Positions 36,729 to 49,954 of a stretch of DNA of 64,000 bases are shown here, one piece after another. The notes under the pieces are model-generated. The model made no database searches. It was not told where the DNA came from and saw only the letters and a list, made by a program, of their open reading frames with translations. The position numbers were made by a program, and so were the translations under genes. The stretch is taken from positions 1-64,000 of the forward strand of contig JABCTZ010000012.1 of NCBI GenBank assembly GCA_018238155.1. Reading direction: 5' to 3'. Source of the DNA: Candidatus Heimdallarchaeota archaeon. Its GTDB lineage: Archaea > Asgardarchaeota > Heimdallarchaeia > JABLTI01. Numbering within the stretch: position 1 is the first letter of the stretch; every line of letters begins with the position of its first letter.

Positions 36729-37601
36729 ATGCTAGAAAAACAAAAAGAAATTCTAATTGCTGTGAAGGAAAACATAGAAAAAATTGAATCTGAAAGATAT
36801 AATTCCAAAGATCCAGTTGTAACTATTGATAAAAGTGATTCTCATCAAAATGTTATTGTGAAATTATTGACAGCAGAACGAACAGGAGCGCCTTTGATCC
36901 TGGAAAAGGAAACTCTTTATCCCGCAGAAGATTTAGCTAAGAGGAATTTCTCTAAAGGAGTAACAACATTAAATTCTTGGCGATTTAGAAAAAGTTCAAC
37001 CCATTTTACAGACGCTGCAAACCTTGCTCGCGATTTAGTTTTACAGCAAAGAATTAATCTCTATAAACAGTTACATTCATTATTACAATCTACCGTTTTG
37101 ACCGCACCTGATAAAATCATAAAAAGCAAAGGAAAATTATTCGCGGAAGTTCTTAATTCTTTGAAAAAATATGATAAATTGTCTGAAGAAGAACAATATT
37201 ATTATCAACGAATTATTGATTCTCTGTATGGTATTGCGAGTTTATTGGTTGCAGGAGATAAAAAGACAAAAACCCAGCAGCTGTTTGTAAGATGTACTAT
37301 TTCTTTAAGCAATCGTGAATACCTCGCAGCAAATATTTGGCTCTTTAAAATCTACTTGCTGAATAGAGATGCTTTCGATTCTTTGGCAGCTAGTGATAAA
37401 ATATTACAAAAAGCACTCAAATCTCTCCAATTATATGTTGAAGTAGAAGCGGGTCTAAAAGAGTTCGCTGAAGGTTTACCTATAATGGCAAGTGCCTATG
37501 ATTTACAAACTATTTTTGCTGATTATCTCAAAACAGTTTTTGATATTGAATTTATTGTTGAAACAAAGAGGGATTTTGGCTTTCCAGAATATCGGGTGTA
37601 A
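36729..37601 (+). CDS. Hypothetical protein resembling a degenerate CARF + helical (Csm6/TIGR02710-like) protein
   Basis: The ORF itself is clear. Family similarity is by-eye pattern only (see findings). Confidence 0.45.
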   Translation: MLEKQKEILIAVKENIEKIESERYNSKDPVVTIDKSDSHQNVIVKLLTAERTGAPLILEKETLYPAEDLAKRNFSKGVTTLNSWRFRKSSTHFTDAANLARDLVLQQRINLYKQLHSLLQSTVLTAPDKIIKSKGKLFAEVLNSLKKYDKLSEEEQYYYQRIIDSLYGIASLLVAGDKKTKTQQLFVRCTISLSNREYLAANIWLFKIYLLNRDAFDSLAASDKILQKALKSLQLYVEVEAGLKEFAEGLPIMASAYDLQTIFADYLKTVFDIEFIVETKRDFGFPEYRV

Positions 37602-37617
37602 TATTGGAGTTGATAGT

Positions 37618-40600
37618 ATGGAACACATCAAGAAAAGTCTCAAGACACTCCAACAAACACCAGGAGAACCACAGTTTGTAGATTTCCAAGTTCTATCCGT
37701 TAGACAACGAGATGCAGAAGGAGGATATCATTTGGCTCTTCGTTTGCTTGAACCTGGAACAAGAAATCAAATATGCAAGGCAATTGTTTATCCAATGGAA
37801 TGGTATCCTGGTCGATACGATGATCCTTCATTTTCACATTATCATAGTGTACTTAGATATTGTTTTGCGGGTCTCAAATCTGAAGGAAGACCTGCTGAAC
37901 TGTTATTACAAGTAATGAAAGCTGTTTGGAAACCCGGAAAAGCAAAACCAGCCGGGAAATCTGCAGACGATAATCAAGGTCAGTTAGTAATTCTCAAATT
38001 TATTATTTCACCTGATTATAATATTACGGGTGGTGAGCTTGAGCTCGCTTTTAATTGTCCGGTTAAATATTTTTATGAATCATTTCTTGGATTACAAAGA
38101 GCAATTCGCTCTGCCCCTACGTCAATTGGCTTTGTAAGAGGAAACGCAATTCACAAAGGGATACAATATGCATCAAATGAATGGGTACAGAGTGCTGATC
38201 CCGTGGCTTCTATGAAATCTTATAACAGAGCTGTTATTGATGAATGGAGAGATAATTTTGCTATCCTGCTTCGTAAAAATTATTTTAGAGGTCCAACAAA
38301 GGATTTGAAATTACCTGTTCAAGTTGATTCTATAGTCGTTGATCAAATAGCTGAAAAATTCACTGGTATAGAAGAAACGCAATTATTGAATGAATGTTTA
38401 CTATTTTCTCCTGAGCGAGGAATTTCTGGCAGGGCAGATCAAATTATTCTTAAGGATGATCAAGATGAACTTTGGGAGATAAAAACTGGGAGTAGATATT
38501 TCATTGAATCTGATTATGATCCATTAACTGGTGTAACACATCCGGGTGGGATACAAGCATTTGCTTATCATGATATTGTGAAAAAAGTGTTAGGACGAGC
38601 TCCAAAAGCTTTCATTGAATTTTTTGATGCAGATGCAGGAATGGCTGAAGACAACCCAGAAATTATTCCATTACAAGAGCATGCTGTGATTAAGAGAAGA
38701 AAAATAGACCTTGCTAACACTCAAAGTGATGAATATCTTGACTTGCTCCTACAAACAAGAAATATTTCATTTGCAATAGAGTCAGGATTGCTATCTGGAT
38801 ATGATCGTTACAAAATAAACAAATTTTTGTCTAGAAGATTTATGCCTGCTTTGGGCACAGATTTCAACCTTCTAAGTAGCAATTGGAATCGTATTTGTAA
38901 TTACTGTCCATCGAATCAACAAGGTATTTGTTCTGATGGTCGAGTTCGTTTAGATACTGATATCTGGTTACATTTTCCTCAAGATTTGTTTGAATATTGG
39001 TCTTGGTATTTCAGGCAATTGCGATTTGAATTAAATAATGTTAAAAGATATCTGCATCGACTAGCGACAACACAAGTATCCCTCTTAGAAGAACAAGGAG
39101 TAACAATTTCAGATCTTGCGATAAAGAAATTTGATCCGTACAGATATATTCTCACTCTATCTTCAAAAAAGAGAATTTTCACTCGAATTCGTGAAGGTGA
39201 TAGTGTTTTTGTTACTCCTTCTATTTTAAAACCGGGCGAAATTTTTAGTGTTGAGGGAAAAGTGGAATTTCTTACTACAGATGAAGTGGTCATTAAAACA
39301 CGGTCAACTTTGAAGTCTAGAGGTAAACAGTCAAAAGAATTTAGGATTGATCAAGTACAGAAGGTAATATTTTCGAAATGGCAAACTCGCTCTCTCACTG
39401 ATTTTCTATTTGAGTCAATGAGAAGGACGAATGTTCTTGGTAGAAAATTGTCAAGTAAAGAATTACCAAAAACAGTACAGCTCGTTATTGGAACTACAAA
39501 ACCGAAAAAAATCATTCCTGTTAGTCGAAAGCGATTGTTAAAAGATCTAGACAAATTTAAGGTCGAGGCAATCGAAAAAGCACTAGGCTTGGAAGCAGGT
39601 GAATTTCTTCTAGTTCAAGGCCCACCTGGAACTGGGAAAACAAGAATGATAGCTCAACTTGCCAAAGAAATTTTCTCAGAAAAATATCTCTTACATTCAA
39701 AGGATTTCAATGAAACAGATTATACGTTACCAAAACCAGTTCTAATTTTGACAAATACCCATAGAGCTGCAGATGAAGTTATTATTAAATTGCGTTCATT
39801 TGAAGATCTAAAACCATACATTGTTAGATTGGAATCATATTCAAAGAATCATCCGGAAGAAGTTCAAGAGTACATCATTCCTAATAGAGTCCAGTTCTCA
39901 GAGCATATAAAGGATAAAGCAGATCCCAATCTTTTGGTATCCATTCTCAAGAAAGGTACTGAAATGTATAACCAAGCAGGAATAATCGTTGGCACTCTAG
40001 GAAGTGTTGGAAATAATCTCTTAAAGGGTCTAAATTTCAATTGGGTAATTGTTGATGAAGCTGGACAAGCAACCGAACCTGCCTCTTTGGGTGCACTCCG
40101 TCATTTATGTCCACTTTCTGATTCGAAGGATGGCTATCCGAGAATAGTTTTAGTTGGAGATCACAAACAATTACCTCCTGTAGTTTCTGAAGAAACAATT
40201 GAACATACTCCTCCTGTGCCTAAAGTTCTTCTCAAATCTGGGCTAACGAAAACAGATACACTCAAAACTTCACTCTTTGAAAGATTGTTCAGAATGTGGG
40301 TTGGAAAAAGTAATAATGTTGTTATTTTAGCTGATCAATATCGGATGAATGAAGCAATTTCGAGAATAATTAATCATGCATTTTATCCTGAAGTAAACTA
40401 TGTGCCTGCGAATGATTCCATTGGCAAACACTCTCTGAAGGATTTTCTGGATGCATTTGCTCCTAAGCAAGCGTTCGATAAAAAGAAATTTTCAAGTATA
40501 ATTTTTGATTATAAAATGCCCGTTGTTTTTCTAAACTCAGAAAAAGATCCAAATGGCTTGGAAGGAGTAGAGGATACAGATATACAAACTGAATCTCGTT

Positions 40601-41097
40601 TTAATATTCGAGAAGCAAAAATAATCAGTTCATTACTATCTGAATTTTTAATGAATTATCCAGAAAAGGATCAAATTGCTATTGCAAAACAAATAGGTAT
40701 TATTTCTCCATACCGTCATCAGAACAATCAAATTTATGCTGAATTACGAGCTAAAAAATTCTCAGATGCAGTTATTACACAAATAAGAGTTGATACTGTT
40801 GATAGATATCAAGGTGATGAACGCGAAATAATCATTCTGAGTTTAACAAATAGCAATGAACTAAATACTATCGGTCAGTTGCATCGCGAATGGCGACGAA
40901 TGAACGTTTCAATCAGTAGAGCAAAAGCTAAACTTGTAATCATAGGCAATAAACGAACTTTCATTTTACCTAATTCTGAAGAAAAAGATGTTGAAGCAAA
41001 AGAAAAATTCAAAAAAATGTTTGATACGATTGAAGTATTAAAGAGTGAAAAATTAGCTCTAGAATTGCCTACAGCGAATCTCTTCACTGAAGACTAG
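37618..41097 (+). CDS. Dna2-like nuclease-helicase (Cas4-type Fe-S PD-(D/E)xK nuclease + Upf1-like SF1 helicase)
   Basis: Start at MEHIK behind GGAG. Nuclease: CP...GNAIH...E...GRAD...EIKTG...QAFAY...CNYC-x6-C. Helicase: GPPGTGKT, DEAGQ, GDHKQLPP, QYRM, SPY, TVDRYQGDE, NVSISRAK. Confidence 0.9.
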   Translation: MEHIKKSLKTLQQTPGEPQFVDFQVLSVRQRDAEGGYHLALRLLEPGTRNQICKAIVYPMEWYPGRYDDPSFSHYHSVLRYCFAGLKSEGRPAELLLQVMKAVWKPGKAKPAGKSADDNQGQLVILKFIISPDYNITGGELELAFNCPVKYFYESFLGLQRAIRSAPTSIGFVRGNAIHKGIQYASNEWVQSADPVASMKSYNRAVIDEWRDNFAILLRKNYFRGPTKDLKLPVQVDSIVVDQIAEKFTGIEETQLLNECLLFSPERGISGRADQIILKDDQDELWEIKTGSRYFIESDYDPLTGVTHPGGIQAFAYHDIVKKVLGRAPKAFIEFFDADAGMAEDNPEIIPLQEHAVIKRRKIDLANTQSDEYLDLLLQTRNISFAIESGLLSGYDRYKINKFLSRRFMPALGTDFNLLSSNWNRICNYCPSNQQGICSDGRVRLDTDIWLHFPQDLFEYWSWYFRQLRFELNNVKRYLHRLATTQVSLLEEQGVTISDLAIKKFDPYRYILTLSSKKRIFTRIREGDSVFVTPSILKPGEIFSVEGKVEFLTTDEVVIKTRSTLKSRGKQSKEFRIDQVQKVIFSKWQTRSLTDFLFESMRRTNVLGRKLSSKELPKTVQLVIGTTKPKKIIPVSRKRLLKDLDKFKVEAIEKALGLEAGEFLLVQGPPGTGKTRMIAQLAKEIFSEKYLLHSKDFNETDYTLPKPVLILTNTHRAADEVIIKLRSFEDLKPYIVRLESYSKNHPEEVQEYIIPNRVQFSEHIKDKADPNLLVSILKKGTEMYNQAGIIVGTLGSVGNNLLKGLNFNWVIVDEAGQATEPASLGALRHLCPLSDSKDGYPRIVLVGDHKQLPPVVSEETIEHTPPVPKVLLKSGLTKTDTLKTSLFERLFRMWVGKSNNVVILADQYRMNEAISRIINHAFYPEVNYVPANDSIGKHSLKDFLDAFAPKQAFDKKKFSSIIFDYKMPVVFLNSEKDPNGLEGVEDTDIQTESRFNIREAKIISSLLSEFLMNYPEKDQIAIAKQIGIISPYRHQNNQIYAELRAKKFSDAVITQIRVDTVDRYQGDEREIIILSLTNSNELNTIGQLHREWRRMNVSISRAKAKLVIIGNKRTFILPNSEEKDVEAKEKFKKMFDTIEVLKSEKLALELPTANLFTED

Positions 41098-41656: not shown

Positions 41657-41766
41657 AGAATGCTTATTAAGAGGTATTTAGTTTGATATTATTGTTAATT
41701 TAGCTATAAAGAGGCAAAGATATTTCATAATCATTAATCATTCAAATTTAGAGCTTAAATTGAGTT

Positions 41767-44064
41767 GTGCTGAAAATGTCATTGAAAAAAGTAAGTAGTT
41801 CATTACTAAGTCAAATTGGTTTCTCAGAACTAGAGCAGCAAGTATATTTAACGATTCTGGGAATAGGCAATGCATCCTTGGGTGAAATGTATCTTCAAAC
41901 GGGGATATCTTTTGAAGATTTACAAAATGTTGTTGATGAATTATCTGATAGAGGTTATCTTAAGAAAATAGCCGGTAAAATCAATAGATATATTGCTGTT
42001 GAACCATTTCTTAAGGGATTTTTATTTGTTGAAAAGGAATTTCAAAATGATATTATTGGCATTGAAAATTCATTAATTAATTCTTTTGATACTAGTTATG
42101 ATAAATTAAATCTTAGCATGGACAATTTCATTGGGTCAATTAGTCCCATTTATGATAAAATAGTAGAAGAGCTGCGCCTTTCTAATGAAAAGTTAAAGAT
42201 GGATCTAACAAATTCTATCTATCGTCATTCTGATAAAATCTCTAATCTTGCAGAAAGTTTTGATGTTATACTTTCTGAAGGCTTCTCTAAAACGTATTTA
42301 TCTATTAGCAATGAGCTTTCAAATCTTAGTAATGAAATAAGTGTTATTCTTCGTGAAGAATCTACTAATGCTACTACTCGATTGCAAACTTTTGAACAAA
42401 TAACAAACCAAACACTTACAAATATTATTCAACCATTAGATGATTCAATAATTGAATATAAAGCGTCTGCACCTGTTAAACAAAAATTAATTTTAGATGA
42501 ACACAGACACGAAATATCTAATCTTCAAAAGAATATCAAATCAATCACTAAACTAAGTTTGAAAGATATTGCTACATCCCTTAAGGAATTCGAGAAGGAA
42601 TTTTTAGAACTTCTTTCTACAGCTTCAAATGGATATGCAACGGTCATCAAAGATTACAAAACAGCTACTCACACATTAGTGAGTGAAAAGAAGAAAAAAT
42701 TAGATGGTGCAGTAGTAAAACTTGTACAATATATTGGCAAAAATGTCGATCAACTTTCACAAGAAGCTCATAACTTGAAAGGAAATATAGATGAATTAAC
42801 TAAAACTGGTTTATTGAAACGCCCTCCTCCTCAATTAGTACAAGAAGCAAAAGAACGTGCAGATAAAATCGATCGTTTATCAATAGATATCAAAGGTGCT
42901 TATGATGAAGCCCTTAAAACATATCAGAAGGATATCATAGAAGGTCTGAACGACTTTATAAAAATAAATGATGCTTTATTAACTAAACAACTTGCAGGTG
43001 GAAATAGCCAGATCAAAGCTCTTAAAATTAAGATTGCTAGTACCTGGACTGCTATAGCAAAGAAATATGAGACTGATTTAACAGCTGCTGTCAAAGAAGT
43101 GCTAAAGGAATCCAACCCAAAACTCACAAGTACCTCTAAAGAGGCATTCAATAATACGCTCAAGCATATTGAGGTTCTAAAAAACAGTGTTTCAGTAATT
43201 TTAGCTCCATTAAAGGATGTTATCTTTAAGGATCTTGAAGATTGTATGGAAAACCTCTTTTTGAATTCAGCAAAGAGATTGCGATATCATAATGATTCTA
43301 ATAATAAATCATTGGAAACAATACGCCATCTAACTGATGATATGAAATTTGTTTTCAAGAATCAAGTACAAGAAGAATTGAGTAAACCAAAGCAAATTGC
43401 TTCTGAAATGATAAGCGATTATACCAGTACACTTGACAACTATCTAACCACTCTCAATAGAGATCAAGGTGCAACTCTTGATACAATTACAACAGCAGCA
43501 GAAACTTTCCTCAATGTCTTGAAGGATTCATACTCAACTTCGAGTAATGAAATCTCCAACCGATTAGCGGCAATTATTTACAAGGTCAACGAAACTAAAA
43601 CATATCTCCAAGAAATCACCAATGCTGTGGATCAAATTCTTCCTGTTCCAAAACCACATTCAATCATTGTTTATGGCAATCAAAATTCAATGAATACTAT
43701 TTACGATATGCTCCTTCGTACTCGGTCAACTTGCACTATTGTAGTTCCAACAATTGATCAATATCTTGTTGATCTTCTTTCTAAACAAGTCTCAAAGAGA
43801 GTACGAATAAGAATATTAGCTGATGTAGATCCATTCAGAGATGAAGCGATGGTTGCAGCTTTGAAACAACAAGGCAATATTACTATTTGGAATTACAATA
43901 TGAGAGACTTCTTTGCAGTTACTCGAGATGGTGCCGAAGTATTACTTGCTCCTGTCACTCGAGATGGTGAGCTGACAAGTTTCGTTACAGAACAAGATGC
44001 TTTAGTAAGAGCAATTCAACAAATTATCAATGCATCTTTCATGGCTCGTTCAAAAGAAGTTTAA
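41767..44064 (+). CDS. TrmB-family HTH + long helical/coiled-coil region + TrmB-type (PLD-like) C-terminal domain
   Basis: GFSELEQQVYLTIL...LSDRGYL...YIAVEP at the N-terminus; about 545 aa helical region; C-terminal IVVP...RVRILAD...TRDGAEVLLAP. Confidence 0.8.
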   Translation: MLKMSLKKVSSSLLSQIGFSELEQQVYLTILGIGNASLGEMYLQTGISFEDLQNVVDELSDRGYLKKIAGKINRYIAVEPFLKGFLFVEKEFQNDIIGIENSLINSFDTSYDKLNLSMDNFIGSISPIYDKIVEELRLSNEKLKMDLTNSIYRHSDKISNLAESFDVILSEGFSKTYLSISNELSNLSNEISVILREESTNATTRLQTFEQITNQTLTNIIQPLDDSIIEYKASAPVKQKLILDEHRHEISNLQKNIKSITKLSLKDIATSLKEFEKEFLELLSTASNGYATVIKDYKTATHTLVSEKKKKLDGAVVKLVQYIGKNVDQLSQEAHNLKGNIDELTKTGLLKRPPPQLVQEAKERADKIDRLSIDIKGAYDEALKTYQKDIIEGLNDFIKINDALLTKQLAGGNSQIKALKIKIASTWTAIAKKYETDLTAAVKEVLKESNPKLTSTSKEAFNNTLKHIEVLKNSVSVILAPLKDVIFKDLEDCMENLFLNSAKRLRYHNDSNNKSLETIRHLTDDMKFVFKNQVQEELSKPKQIASEMISDYTSTLDNYLTTLNRDQGATLDTITTAAETFLNVLKDSYSTSSNEISNRLAAIIYKVNETKTYLQEITNAVDQILPVPKPHSIIVYGNQNSMNTIYDMLLRTRSTCTIVVPTIDQYLVDLLSKQVSKRVRIRILADVDPFRDEAMVAALKQQGNITIWNYNMRDFFAVTRDGAEVLLAPVTRDGELTSFVTEQDALVRAIQQIINASFMARSKEV

Positions 44065-44092: not shown

Positions 44093-44779
44093 TCATTTGA
44101 AAATGGTTAACAATCTCTGAATTTCTTTAAACCAATTCGAAATACTTTTTTGAATAACTTTCTTAGTTTTATCTGGCACATGCCATAGTTCTATAAGATC
44201 AAATTCTCTTTTAGATGTTTCAAACATGTTTTTGAGGAGTGCCAGAACAATTTTGTTCTTTTTCATCAATTTACGTGAAACAGCACTTAGTGGAATTGGT
44301 TGTTCCTTACCAAAGGATTCCAATATACCCAAAATTCCTAGACAGCTGCTTTCAAGAAAAACATCAAAGGAATTTGTCAAGGGGATGTAAACGTGATATG
44401 CAGGCATAGTTAAGAGAACTAAGGGATTGCCATCTGGATCAAGATTTTTCATATCAAGTAAGTAAAATGCTTCTTCATCGTTTGTTGCAAATAAAATAAA
44501 ACGATTATCGGGAAGATGATTTACTTTTTTCCTAGTAAGAATGAGGTTTTCACATGAATTTATCAGTAGGTGTGATGGGTCCTCTAAATCATCTAGAAAA
44601 TACTCGGAATCAATCATTAAACCATTTGTTTGCTCGTAAAAAAGTTTCAAATGATCTGGTAATTCCATGTTCTTAAAAAATAATAGTTCTTTAATATGGA
44701 TGCGAGTGAGTCCATTGTAAAAAGTGACTTCTACTCTTGAATCATCTAAATAATTATCCAGTATCTGAATTTTCTTCAC
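44093..44779 (-). CDS. SMI1/KNR4-family protein
   Basis: LPDHLKLFYEQTNG, ILFA...YLLD, LTNSFDVFLE. Confidence 0.7.
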   Translation of the reverse strand: MKKIQILDNYLDDSRVEVTFYNGLTRIHIKELLFFKNMELPDHLKLFYEQTNGLMIDSEYFLDDLEDPSHLLINSCENLILTRKKVNHLPDNRFILFATNDEEAFYLLDMKNLDPDGNPLVLLTMPAYHVYIPLTNSFDVFLESSCLGILGILESFGKEQPIPLSAVSRKLMKKNKIVLALLKNMFETSKREFDLIELWHVPDKTKKVIQKSISNWFKEIQRLLTIFK

Positions 44780-48682: not shown

Positions 48683-48814
48683 AAATGCCTTTTTCGCCCT
48701 TTTTCGCTCAATGTATTCTCTAGATAGCATCACCATTGATACCAGAAAAATGTCTTGGTCGCACACGGGTTTTTAATATTTCAACTCTATTTGTACATAT
48801 ATCAGGTGAGGACA

Positions 48815-49954
48815 ATGGAATCTTTTATCAAAAATATCACTGAAAAAGAGCAAGTACCAAAGCTCTTTACAACTGAAGAATCAAAGTATGACTCTCAAGA
48901 TGTTGATCAAGATTTACGAAGGATTATTGAGGACATCCAAGCGAAAATATTGGTTATAGGCGTTGGTGGTGCGGGAAATAACGCAGTCACAAGATTAAAC
49001 CAATCTGGCCTTGTTGGAGCAATCACTCTAACAGCAAACACTGATGCACAACAATTGCTCTTCTCAAAGAGTCATAAGAAGATGCTCTTAGGTAGAGAGC
49101 TCTGCAGAGGACTTGGTGCAGGTAATGATCCACAAATAGGTGCAGAAGCTGCTGATGAATCAAGTGAAACCTTGAAAGGAATTCTAACACAAGTTGACAT
49201 GGTCTTTATTGTTTGTGGACTTGGTGGTGGAACCGGAACTGGTGCTGCCCCTGTTATTGCACGTTTAGCTAAAAATCTGGGCGTTTTAACAGTATCAATA
49301 TGCACTCTCCCATTTGATGTCGAAGGAAAGATGAAAGCTCTACATGCTAAAGAAGGTTTGAGAAGATTATATGAAAGCAGTGACACAACAATTGTTGTTC
49401 CAAATGAAAAATTAATTGAAATTGTTCCTGAACTATCATTAAAAGAAGCTTTCTTAGTTGCAGATGAAATACTCATTCGTGCTGTTACCGGATTAACGGA
49501 ACTTATTAATCGACCAGGAGATGTTAATGTTGATTTCGCAGATGTTCGTCGAGTTCTAGGTGAAGGTGGAGCGGCAATAATTGGTCTTGGAGAATCTAGC
49601 AGTGCAGATAATAGAGCTAAAGAAGCTGTTGAAGATGCTTTAAGCAATCCATTGCTCGAAGTTGATATTCGTACTGCGAAAAGTGTTTTGCTAAATATTA
49701 CTGGTGGTAAAGATCTCAATCTAAAGCAAACAGAAGAAGTTATACGTGCTGTAACAGATCAACTCAGTACAGATATCATCGTTAAATTTGGTGTTTTGAT
49801 TGATCCCGATCTTCAAGGAACAATTAGAGCAACAATAGTTGTTTCCGGAGTTAGAAGCCCCTATATTCTTTCAAATATGCAAGATTCACCTTCCACAGAA
49901 ATGGATTATGATTTAGAAGACGACCTTGATTTAGGGCTCGAAACATTTGAATAA
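48815..49954 (+). CDS. ftsZ: Cell division protein FtsZ
   Basis: GVGGAGNN, NTDAQ, GLGAG, GGGTGTG, NVDFAD; ATG at 48815 behind GGTGAGG. Confidence 0.97.
   Translation: MESFIKNITEKEQVPKLFTTEESKYDSQDVDQDLRRIIEDIQAKILVIGVGGAGNNAVTRLNQSGLVGAITLTANTDAQQLLFSKSHKKMLLGRELCRGLGAGNDPQIGAEAADESSETLKGILTQVDMVFIVCGLGGGTGTGAAPVIARLAKNLGVLTVSICTLPFDVEGKMKALHAKEGLRRLYESSDTTIVVPNEKLIEIVPELSLKEAFLVADEILIRAVTGLTELINRPGDVNVDFADVRRVLGEGGAAIIGLGESSSADNRAKEAVEDALSNPLLEVDIRTAKSVLLNITGGKDLNLKQTEEVIRAVTDQLSTDIIVKFGVLIDPDLQGTIRATIVVSGVRSPYILSNMQDSPSTEMDYDLEDDLDLGLETFE

Follow-up and report, generated by a model that had tools for sequence, protein, structure and literature searches.

We analyzed a stretch of 64,000 nucleotides (nt) from a Candidatus Heimdallarchaeota archaeon (positions 1 to 64,000 of contig JABCTZ010000012.1, assembly GCA_018238155.1; hereafter the window) and focused on a single gene on the forward strand. 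The product of this gene, termed here the rod protein, comprises an N-terminal winged helix-turn-helix of the TrmB type, a very long helical middle part, and a C-terminal domain with the phospholipase D (PLD) fold. The features of the gene, in window coordinates, are as follows.

41713-41730, forward strand: motif resembling the transcription factor B recognition element (BRE) and TATA box, a purine run followed by ATATTTCATAA, ~50 nt before the ATG
41776-44064 including the stop codon, forward strand: rod gene, 762 amino acid residues (aa), with a probable ATG start judged from the lengths of homologs
41776-42006, forward strand: TrmB-type winged helix-turn-helix, residues 1-77, Pfam PF01978, assigned by profile and structure matches
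42007-42804, forward strand: arm 1, residues 78-343, 24 uninterrupted hendecads with the core positions a/e/h
42805-42831, forward strand: central turn, residues 344-352, with the C-cap G345, a basic loop, and P350-x-P352
42832-43632, forward strand: arm 2, residues 353-619, a hendecad helix less regular than arm 1
43633-44061, forward strand: C-terminal PLD-fold domain of the TrmB/TrmBL2 type, residues 620-762, assigned by structure superposition

The open frame spans positions 41767-44064 on the forward strand and contains 765 codons if counted from a GTG. We regard the ATG at 41776, which gives a protein of 762 aa, as the probable true start, because the homologs begin with MS[LKVQ]K and are 762 aa long; 41 of the 47 close homologs, as well as the representative of the public cluster, are exactly of this length and possess this N-terminus. 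Residues are numbered from this ATG, and the numbers in a preliminary description of the locus, which was made by a model from the sequence alone and counted from the GTG, equal ours plus 3. In the orthologous loci, the rod gene is preceded by an intergenic stretch of 107-152 nt that carries the BRE/TATA-like motif (the TATA-like element lies at 41720-41730 in the window). The purine run and TATTT(T/C)AT are kept in the orthologs at 73, 67, and 54% protein identity, and this conservation suggests that the motif is the promoter of the rod gene itself. One same-genus ortholog (G199:C109:1044-3329, reverse strand; 70% identity) has one in-frame TGA, which could be a sequencing error, the mark of a pseudogene, or a case of recoding.

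The end domains of the rod protein proved to be a TrmB winged helix and a PLD-fold domain, as the preliminary description had proposed. PF01978 matched the N-terminal region (residues 14-80 in the GTG numbering) with 32.9 bits against a cut-off of 25.6, and this winged helix was the sole Pfam domain above the threshold. The profile of 28 orthologs matched Pyrococcus furiosus TrmB (PDB 3qph) with an E-value of 8e-7, and this match, spanning residues 8-122 of 3qph, takes in the winged helix and the start of the dimerization helix α5, with residues 78-123 aligned to α5 and beyond. Residues 78-100, which make up the start of a pairing helix that extends over 266 residues here, are nearly invariant among the orthologs, and the winged helix in the structure model resembles those of the MarR/BlaI type (Z of 10-11). 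The C-domain of the model (residues 628-762) was superimposed on 2f5t with a Z of 16.9 and a root-mean-square deviation (rmsd) of 2.1 Å over 129 residues (VIA-align), the superposition being confined to residues 110-241 of TrmB, namely the first subdomain of the effector-binding domain. The same domain scored a Z of 14 against TrmBL2 and Z values of 12-15 against NucT, Nuc, and Zucchini. PF11495 was detected in 20 of the 80 C-domains of the family (best E-value of 1.3e-6), albeit the rod protein itself was not matched. The HxKxxxxD (HKD) catalytic motif was found in none of the 28 orthologs or the 80 family C-domains; R717-D718 hardly varies, and E721 is the same throughout the superfamily. 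The sugar-binding residues of TrmB/TrmBL1 are G320 and E326 of the second subdomain (PMC4158304), and this barrel subdomain is absent from the rod protein, the chain of which stops with the PLD-fold domain at residue 762. Altogether, judged from the sequence and the models, the rod protein is of the TrmBL2 type, in which the winged helix and the pairing helix are followed by a PLD-fold domain that is catalytically dead.

The middle of the rod protein is 542 residues long and wholly helical, residues 78-619 being helical in both runs of AlphaFold2 (AF2). The hydrophobic period is 3.64-3.70 in every segment of the rod (~3.66, that is, an 11-residue repeat; about 3.70 in the first half of arm 2) and not 3.5, while the arms of the SMC (1213 aa) and Rad50 (962 aa) proteins of the same genome, which served as the control, showed periods of 3.46-3.56. 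Written in rows of eleven, arm 1 is composed of consecutive hendecads that start at F78 and end at residue 343, with hydrophobic occupancies of 0.76, 0.80, and 0.72 at positions a, e, and h, respectively. These three positions plus part of d form a hydrophobic stripe with an estimated width of about 100°. The coiled coil is of the hendecad, non-supercoiled kind, and its narrow a/e/h stripe fits the packing of two helices, not four. Prolines occur inside the arms at positions 124, 220, 233, 448, 478, and 538 without interrupting the 11-residue register, which in arm 1 is unbroken across P124, P220, and P233. The sliding phase calculated at a period of 11/3 is flat over arm 1 at about -95° (-125° to -87°); the amplitude then collapses at residues 318-372, the phase jumps by ~100°, and arm 2 continues with a slow drift.

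A two-segment fit placed the register change at residue 347 (339-355 being within 3% of the optimum), next to the midpoint of the rod at 348.5, and the periodic power of each arm exceeded that of 500 out of 500 shuffles. As all of the shuffles were exceeded and the break falls at the midpoint, the division into two arms of ~267 residues with one central break is beyond chance. P80, the prolines at 353-355, and P626 (GTG numbering), from which the preliminary description had derived two near-equal helical arms with a central turn, lie where it had placed them, and the arm lengths and the register change bear out the derivation. The strong periodicity in both arms agrees with a coiled coil, albeit one made of hendecads, not heptads. 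An origin of the two arms by internal duplication was considered and rejected, as the comparison of arm 1 with arm 2 by hhalign gave a probability of 12% and no convincing repeat.

The turn between the arms bears the conserved motif G345-[LR]-[LF]-[KR]-[RK]-P350-[DNS]-P352, followed by x-[LIV]-V, in which G345, P350, and V355 are invariant and P352 is found in 26 of the 28 orthologs. The break had been described as a PPP sequence; its central position holds, but the PPP form (codons CCT CCT CCT in this genome) is limited to the closest relatives, and the conserved feature is instead G-x4-P-x-P. A tight α-hairpin would be well served by these features, namely a C-cap formed by Gly, a basic loop of five residues, and an N-cap formed by Asp-Pro. 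Neither a CxxC zinc hook nor a hinge is present at the apex, which is a loop of ~8 residues, and the only cysteines of the protein are at positions 490 and 653.

The alignment of the 28 orthologs (54-91% identity) has 762 columns and zero gaps, and 42 distinct orthologous sequences of exactly 762 residues were found. Thus, with 46% of the sequence altered, the rod has kept its length to the residue, which is the signature of a structural ruler and not of a linker. The frequency of the majority residue is 0.84 in the first quarter of the rod (H1, residues 78-205) and 0.82 in the last (H4, residues 487-619), against 0.63 in H2 and 0.64 in H3. The smoothed entropy profile matches its own mirror image best at i+j=693 (r of 0.87), and when mutual information was scanned along every antiparallel register, the maximum fell at the same sum, whereas no covariation was seen in that scan at the registers expected for the pairing of H1 with H2 or of H3 with H4 (~423 and 955). 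The covariation band at i+j of 686-700 keeps z values of 1.1-3.2 once the column entropy is regressed out; with an effective sequence number (Neff) of 13.5 and partial confounding by column variability, we regard the covariation as suggestive evidence for antiparallel pairing. The mirror-symmetric conservation and the covariation band, both read from the alignment, would fit the pairing of the two arms in antiparallel orientation.

AF2 was run with 28 sequences (run 1) and with 92 sequences including distant relatives (run 2), giving a mean predicted local distance difference test (pLDDT) of 61.8 and 71.7, respectively, and a predicted template modeling (pTM) score of 0.27-0.31. The C-domain was modeled poorly in run 1 and with a pLDDT of 73-83 in run 2; in the latter, the residues flanking the turn (290-340 and 360-420) reached a pLDDT of 83-89. 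Both models fold back at residues 344-351, which are coil, and bring the end of arm 2 beside the winged helix. Since several winged-helix structure matches include residues up to 613-619 of the model, the end of arm 2 adjoins the winged helix in the model. Residues 583-762 of the model were superimposed on residues 74-264 of the TrmBL2 chain 5box with a Z of 14.3, the last 35 residues of arm 2 lying on the TrmBL2 helix that precedes the C-domain. Each arm is broken once, at positions facing each other (206-217/469-486 in run 1 and 161-176/516-526 in run 2), and these elbow breaks fall in the stretches of lowest confidence, with a pLDDT of 38-48. Thus, the fold-back for which the preliminary description had proposed AlphaFold as the check appeared in both runs, but with an added elbow that shifts its position.

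Further comparisons of the modeled rod were made with known structures. Residues 194-496 of the model matched the cytoplasmic hairpin of a chemoreceptor (2ch7) over 299 residues with an rmsd of 10.2 Å and a Z of 11.7, the latter being below the level where matches between helical proteins exceed a shared arrangement. A Foldseek search of the low-confidence first model against PDB returned only weak matches to long coiled coils (template modeling score ≤0.2), among which were Rad50, cohesin, and an SMC arm segment. The prediction with two copies of residues 200-495 scored 0.17 and 0.12 against a mark of 0.42, an outcome that speaks neither for nor against binding. The invariant G169 (42280-42290 in the window) roughly faces the polar HNDSNNK at residues 504-510 (43294-43305) in the antiparallel register. 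The two sites fall at the low-confidence elbow of run 2 and may mark a genuine joint.

We propose, with about even chances of being right, that the rod protein carries a TrmBL2-type head and two 267-residue arms paired antiparallel within the chain, forming a stalk of ~40 nm that acts as a fixed-length spacer or tether. The pairing helix of a TrmBL2-type protein would have been replaced by ~540 residues of hendecad-repeat helix, the two 267-residue halves of which would pair antiparallel, with residue i facing roughly residue 693-i, and close around the tight capped loop G345...P350-x-P352. The product would be a straight, non-supercoiled two-helix stalk ~40 nm in length, having the winged helix and the PLD-fold domain together at the base and the conserved basic loop at the tip. 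Such a stalk would serve as a structural spacer or tether of fixed length, anchored via the TrmBL2-like head, probably on DNA. The fold-back within a single chain, as seen in the models, is a prediction of moderate confidence, and we infer the role as a fixed-length structural spacer or tether. On this reading, the rod protein neither regulates in response to sugars nor works as an enzyme or an SMC-type motor.

The rod protein belongs to a large family. Exhaustive searching without profiles gave 179 relatives at E-values of ≤0.001, which share this winged helix and C-domain and range in length from ~320 to 1812 aa, with spacers of 100 to 1610 aa. Among the 301 genomes of the Asgard phylum, 218 gave matches; true orthologs (≥56% identity) were limited to the taxonomic family to which the archaeon of the window belongs, and full-length matches at 20-24% identity with frames of ~755-775 codons recurred in many other Asgard families. 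The named members are all from Asgard lineages, namely Heimdall, Hod, Thor, Loki/Promethearchaeota, Atabey, Sigyn, Borr, and Baldr. The exceptions are two close orthologs that carry the labels of Zixibacteria and Thorarchaeota, which we take to be binning errors. All members are annotated as hypothetical or generically (helix-turn-helix, TrmB), the neighbors in the ESM Atlas are Asgard clusters of 'hypothetical protein', and no paper describing the family turned up in the literature searched on TrmB, Asgard and Heimdall archaea, coiled coils, and winged helices.

The hendecad period is shared throughout the long members: all 64 relatives with a spacer of more than 300 aa showed a median period of 3.61-3.73, and the longest relatives are identical to themselves at lags that are multiples of 11. 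Nineteen of the 64 representatives have a proline within the middle 4% of their spacer, which makes a local peak in the distribution. The global comparison of two- and one-segment fits was uninformative for the 63 relatives scanned, as a tiny change in period absorbs a phase jump, and the local phase-jump scan was usable instead; it found a jump near the midpoint in roughly half of them and no jump at all in 11. The turn had been expected to be central in homologs, and a central proline or register jump does recur in many distant length classes, with those 11 of the 63 relatives having no jump. The C-domain profile found four long family members of 650-800 aa in the genome of the window, in which the following three TrmB-headed paralogs lie.

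G000:C39, 147340-149256, reverse strand: rod paralog
G000:C4, around 63000-65323, forward strand: rod paralog
G000:C39, around 114000-116305, reverse strand: rod paralog

Their open frames have 671, 757, and 798 codons (proteins of about 650, 750, and 785 aa). Unlike in the 762-aa protein, the hendecad phase is constant through the center of the rod in all three, with almost no proline in the rod, and the amplitude peaks at or near the center in two of them and is high there in the third. Two distant members, P0182 and P0062, show a constant phase without a central break, like the paralogs.

Several observations weigh against a stalk closed within one chain and anchored on DNA. The elbow appears in both models at positions that shift between the runs, which leaves the length of the modeled rod uncertain, and the AF2 runs, being made on monomers, are blind to pairing between chains and biased to fold-back, with a pTM that is low in any case. 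The covariation is weak, given the small Neff and its confounding in part by column variability. The acidic, variable recognition helix and a net charge of about -20 (see below) leave the binding to DNA unassured. Moreover, the three paralogs and 11 of the 63 distant relatives have no register jump of ≥75° anywhere in the rod; therefore, the fold-back cannot be the rule for the whole superfamily. The antiparallel fold-back joining the end domains, as claimed in the preliminary description, is favored by both AF2 models and the mirror conservation, but an inter-chain dimer gives the same signals. In this somewhat unlikely but substantial alternative, the rod protein is a domain-swapped antiparallel homodimer, in which arm 1 of one chain lies on arm 2 of the other to form a rod of ~80 nm that is hinged at its G...P-x-P dyad, and each head is assembled from the winged helix of one chain and the PLD-fold domain of the other. 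It would be a stretched version of the α5:α5' pairing of TrmB or of the pairing in Sso10a, apt for joining two DNA segments at a defined spacing. The register at i+j≈693, the mirror conservation, and the central break are equally expected of a homodimer dyad, and precedents are known: TrmB dimerizes by an antiparallel α5 zipper (F81/I91' and F84/L88') that was termed a domain swap (PMC4158304), and in the Sso10a dimer, an antiparallel rod carries the winged helices (PMC4941522). The paralogs, with their constant phase and scarce prolines, look like continuous helices, as do P0182 and P0062, and spacers of 100 to 1600 aa are easier to evolve if no paired insertions are needed. What speaks for the single-chain hairpin is that the conserved Gly C-cap and Asp-Pro N-cap lie ~5 residues apart, which is typical of a closed α-hairpin, and that both AF2 models close the hairpin with the highest confidence beside the loop.

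The facing breaks in the models (~212/478 in the first and ~168/521 in the second) could instead be taken as the sign of a compact, elbow-folded or four-helix form, in which helices of 85-165 residues lie side by side in a particle of 19-25 nm. The folded cohesin elbow 7ogt was among the weak Foldseek matches, P220 and P478, both conserved, add up to 698, and residues 504-510 come near the invariant G169 in that register, all of which agree with such a form. We nevertheless consider it quite unlikely, as the break positions differ between the runs and lie in stretches of poor pLDDT, the hendecad phase and amplitude of arm 1 are unchanged through residues 206-217, no covariation was found at the H1:H2 or H3:H4 registers, conservation is far lower in H2 and H3 than in H1 and H4, contrary to what would be expected if all four shared a core, and the narrow stripe suits two helices. 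The four-helix bundle had been favored after the first AF2 run and was demoted once the breaks moved and the hendecad phase was found to run through them. The period of 11/3 is also a hallmark of amphipathic helices on lipid surfaces, and a helix built of 11-mers similar to those of apolipoproteins, perilipins, or α-synuclein might tether a membrane or a lipid body to DNA or to the head domains. Weak profile matches to apolipoprotein A-I/A-IV and apolipophorin-III (E-values of 0.005-0.4) and the precomputed PF01442 on most orthologs point in this direction; however, none of these matches reaches a curated cut-off and the repeat by itself probably explains them, the stripe is narrower than a lipid-binding face, and the mirror symmetry and the capped central loop are left with no role, so we find this explanation very improbable. 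We give just as little credence to the rod protein being the fourth component of a Dna2-like nuclease-helicase module (a Csm6-like protein, the nuclease-helicase, and a double winged-helix protein), for which it would act as a DNA-sensing or recruiting scaffold in repair or defense. Each of the three orthologous loci sampled, the most divergent at 54% identity, has the nuclease-helicase, a gene for 175-180 aa, and the rod gene in this order, which is the adjacency noted in the preliminary description. Unrelated metabolic genes are, however, equally syntenic in these loci, indicating plain synteny; four distant homologs (755-766 aa) have unrelated neighbors and no such helicase, and the rod gene is preceded by its own gap with the promoter-like motif.

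With regard to DNA binding, the winged helix has a net charge of -2.2, in which the recognition helix (residues 44-59) accounts for -2.4 and the wing for +3.2, and the whole protein carries a charge of about -20. The recognition helix of TrmB is about +2 when counted from the profile alignment. In the rod protein, it lies within the least conserved block of the winged helix, whereas the wing is nearly invariant. The canonical reading of the major groove is doubtful because the recognition helix is acidic and poorly conserved; binding to DNA via the wing, or a role in binding proteins, is possible from the charges and the conservation.

The closest known counterpart is TrmBL2 (PF0496/TK0471; PDB 5box, 5bpd, 5bpi, and 5bqt), a chromatin protein of Thermococcales, which has the homologous parts in the same order. 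Its winged helix is followed by the pairing helix and the PLD-fold C-domain with no sugar-binding subdomain (PMC4877046). TrmBL2, a protein of 264 aa, has a single short helix, assembles into dimers and tetramers, and covers DNA to give a stiff filament; the rod protein differs in having ~520 extra hendecad residues inserted between the two connections of this helix and an acidic recognition helix. The sugar-sensing TrmB and TrmBL1 (3qph and 2f5t) share the winged helix, the start of α5, and the first subdomain of the effector domain with the rod protein, which lacks the barrel subdomain bearing the sugar-binding residues. Sso10a, an archaeal winged-helix protein, offers a likeness in that its C-terminal helix forms an antiparallel two-helix rod spacing the DNA-binding domains, and Sso10a1 bridges DNA (PMC4941522). 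Sso10a is nonetheless a protein of 10 kDa with a short inter-chain rod and neither a PLD-fold domain nor a hendecad array, and we claim no sequence relationship. Long antiparallel helical hairpins with a conserved tip are also found in the cytoplasmic part of chemoreceptors, which differ in being heptad-based, membrane-anchored, and assembled as four-helix dimers. The length classes of chemoreceptors arise by matched insertions in both arms.

SMC and Rad50, with which the rod protein had been compared in the preliminary description, have long antiparallel two-helix arms that unite the N- and C-terminal parts, as predicted for the rod protein. The resemblance holds as a loose analogy in geometry: SMC and Rad50 possess an ABC ATPase head, a hinge or a CxxC hook, and heptads (period of ~3.5 vs 3.66), none of which is present in the rod protein. 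Pfam gave no SMC_N or AAA match to the rod protein, whereas the true SMC and Rad50 of the same genome match PF02463. A weak profile match to the kleisin JetA (E-value of 0.08) was treated as chance. The term 'SMC-like' is better replaced by 'TrmBL2 head on hendecad rod', and TrmBL2 and TrmB are the closer relatives.

We further consider it possible, albeit unlikely, that the Asgard family as a whole comprises DNA-anchored molecular rulers, each ortholog group having a length fixed to the residue and at least four paralogs coexisting in the present archaeon, which would space the chromatin from the membrane, the cytoskeleton, or a second DNA segment via their tips or second heads. If so, these proteins would be a prokaryotic scaffold for spacing or tethering the nucleoid in the closest relatives of eukaryotes. 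The known members of the TrmB family are 139-360 aa long (PMC4158304), and the pairing helix of this family of regulators and chromatin proteins would have been turned into a rod of ~40 nm, or ~80 nm in the case of a swapped dimer. Provided that the head binds DNA, the rods are candidate organizers of the compact Asgard nucleoid; if it does not, a regulator fold has been recruited to a purely structural role. The fixed and tunable hendecad array makes the ruler idea directly testable.

The genes surrounding the rod gene in the window are listed below.

37492-41097, upstream of the rod gene: protein with PD-(D/E)XK nuclease and superfamily 1 (SF1) helicase domains (Dna2-like)
upstream of the rod gene: gene for a 181-aa protein
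44093-44779, reverse strand: gene of the SUKH/SMI1-KNR4 family, convergent with the rod gene, 29 nt past its stop codon
downstream, on the strand opposite to the rod gene: genes for an oxidoreductase of the pyruvate:ferredoxin type (POR)

Genes for an M32 peptidase, a POR-type oxidoreductase, a glycosyltransferase, and FtsZ are kept equally well in the three orthologous loci. As the rod gene is separated from the upstream genes by a gap with a promoter-like motif, shows plain synteny, and has distant homologs with other neighbors, we conclude from the gene arrangement that it is independent and does not belong to a nuclease-helicase operon. The adjacency to the nuclease-helicase, found in three of the three orthologous loci, was not found for the four distant ~760-aa homologs. 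In one of these loci (L001:4248-7352, GCA_019058195.1), the nuclease-helicase was called as three open reading frames (ORFs; 462, 216, and 330 aa) and not as one of ~1170 aa, which could be ascribed to frameshifts, a decayed gene, or an assembly error. The position of the SUKH gene is kept in two of the three orthologous loci, and an unannotated gene for 197 aa is found there in the third. The ORF at 48755-49954 (forward strand) is probably that of an FtsZ/tubulin homolog as judged from synteny, because its counterpart in L001 and L002, located after the gene for a family-4 glycosyltransferase, matches Tubulin/FtsZ_C.

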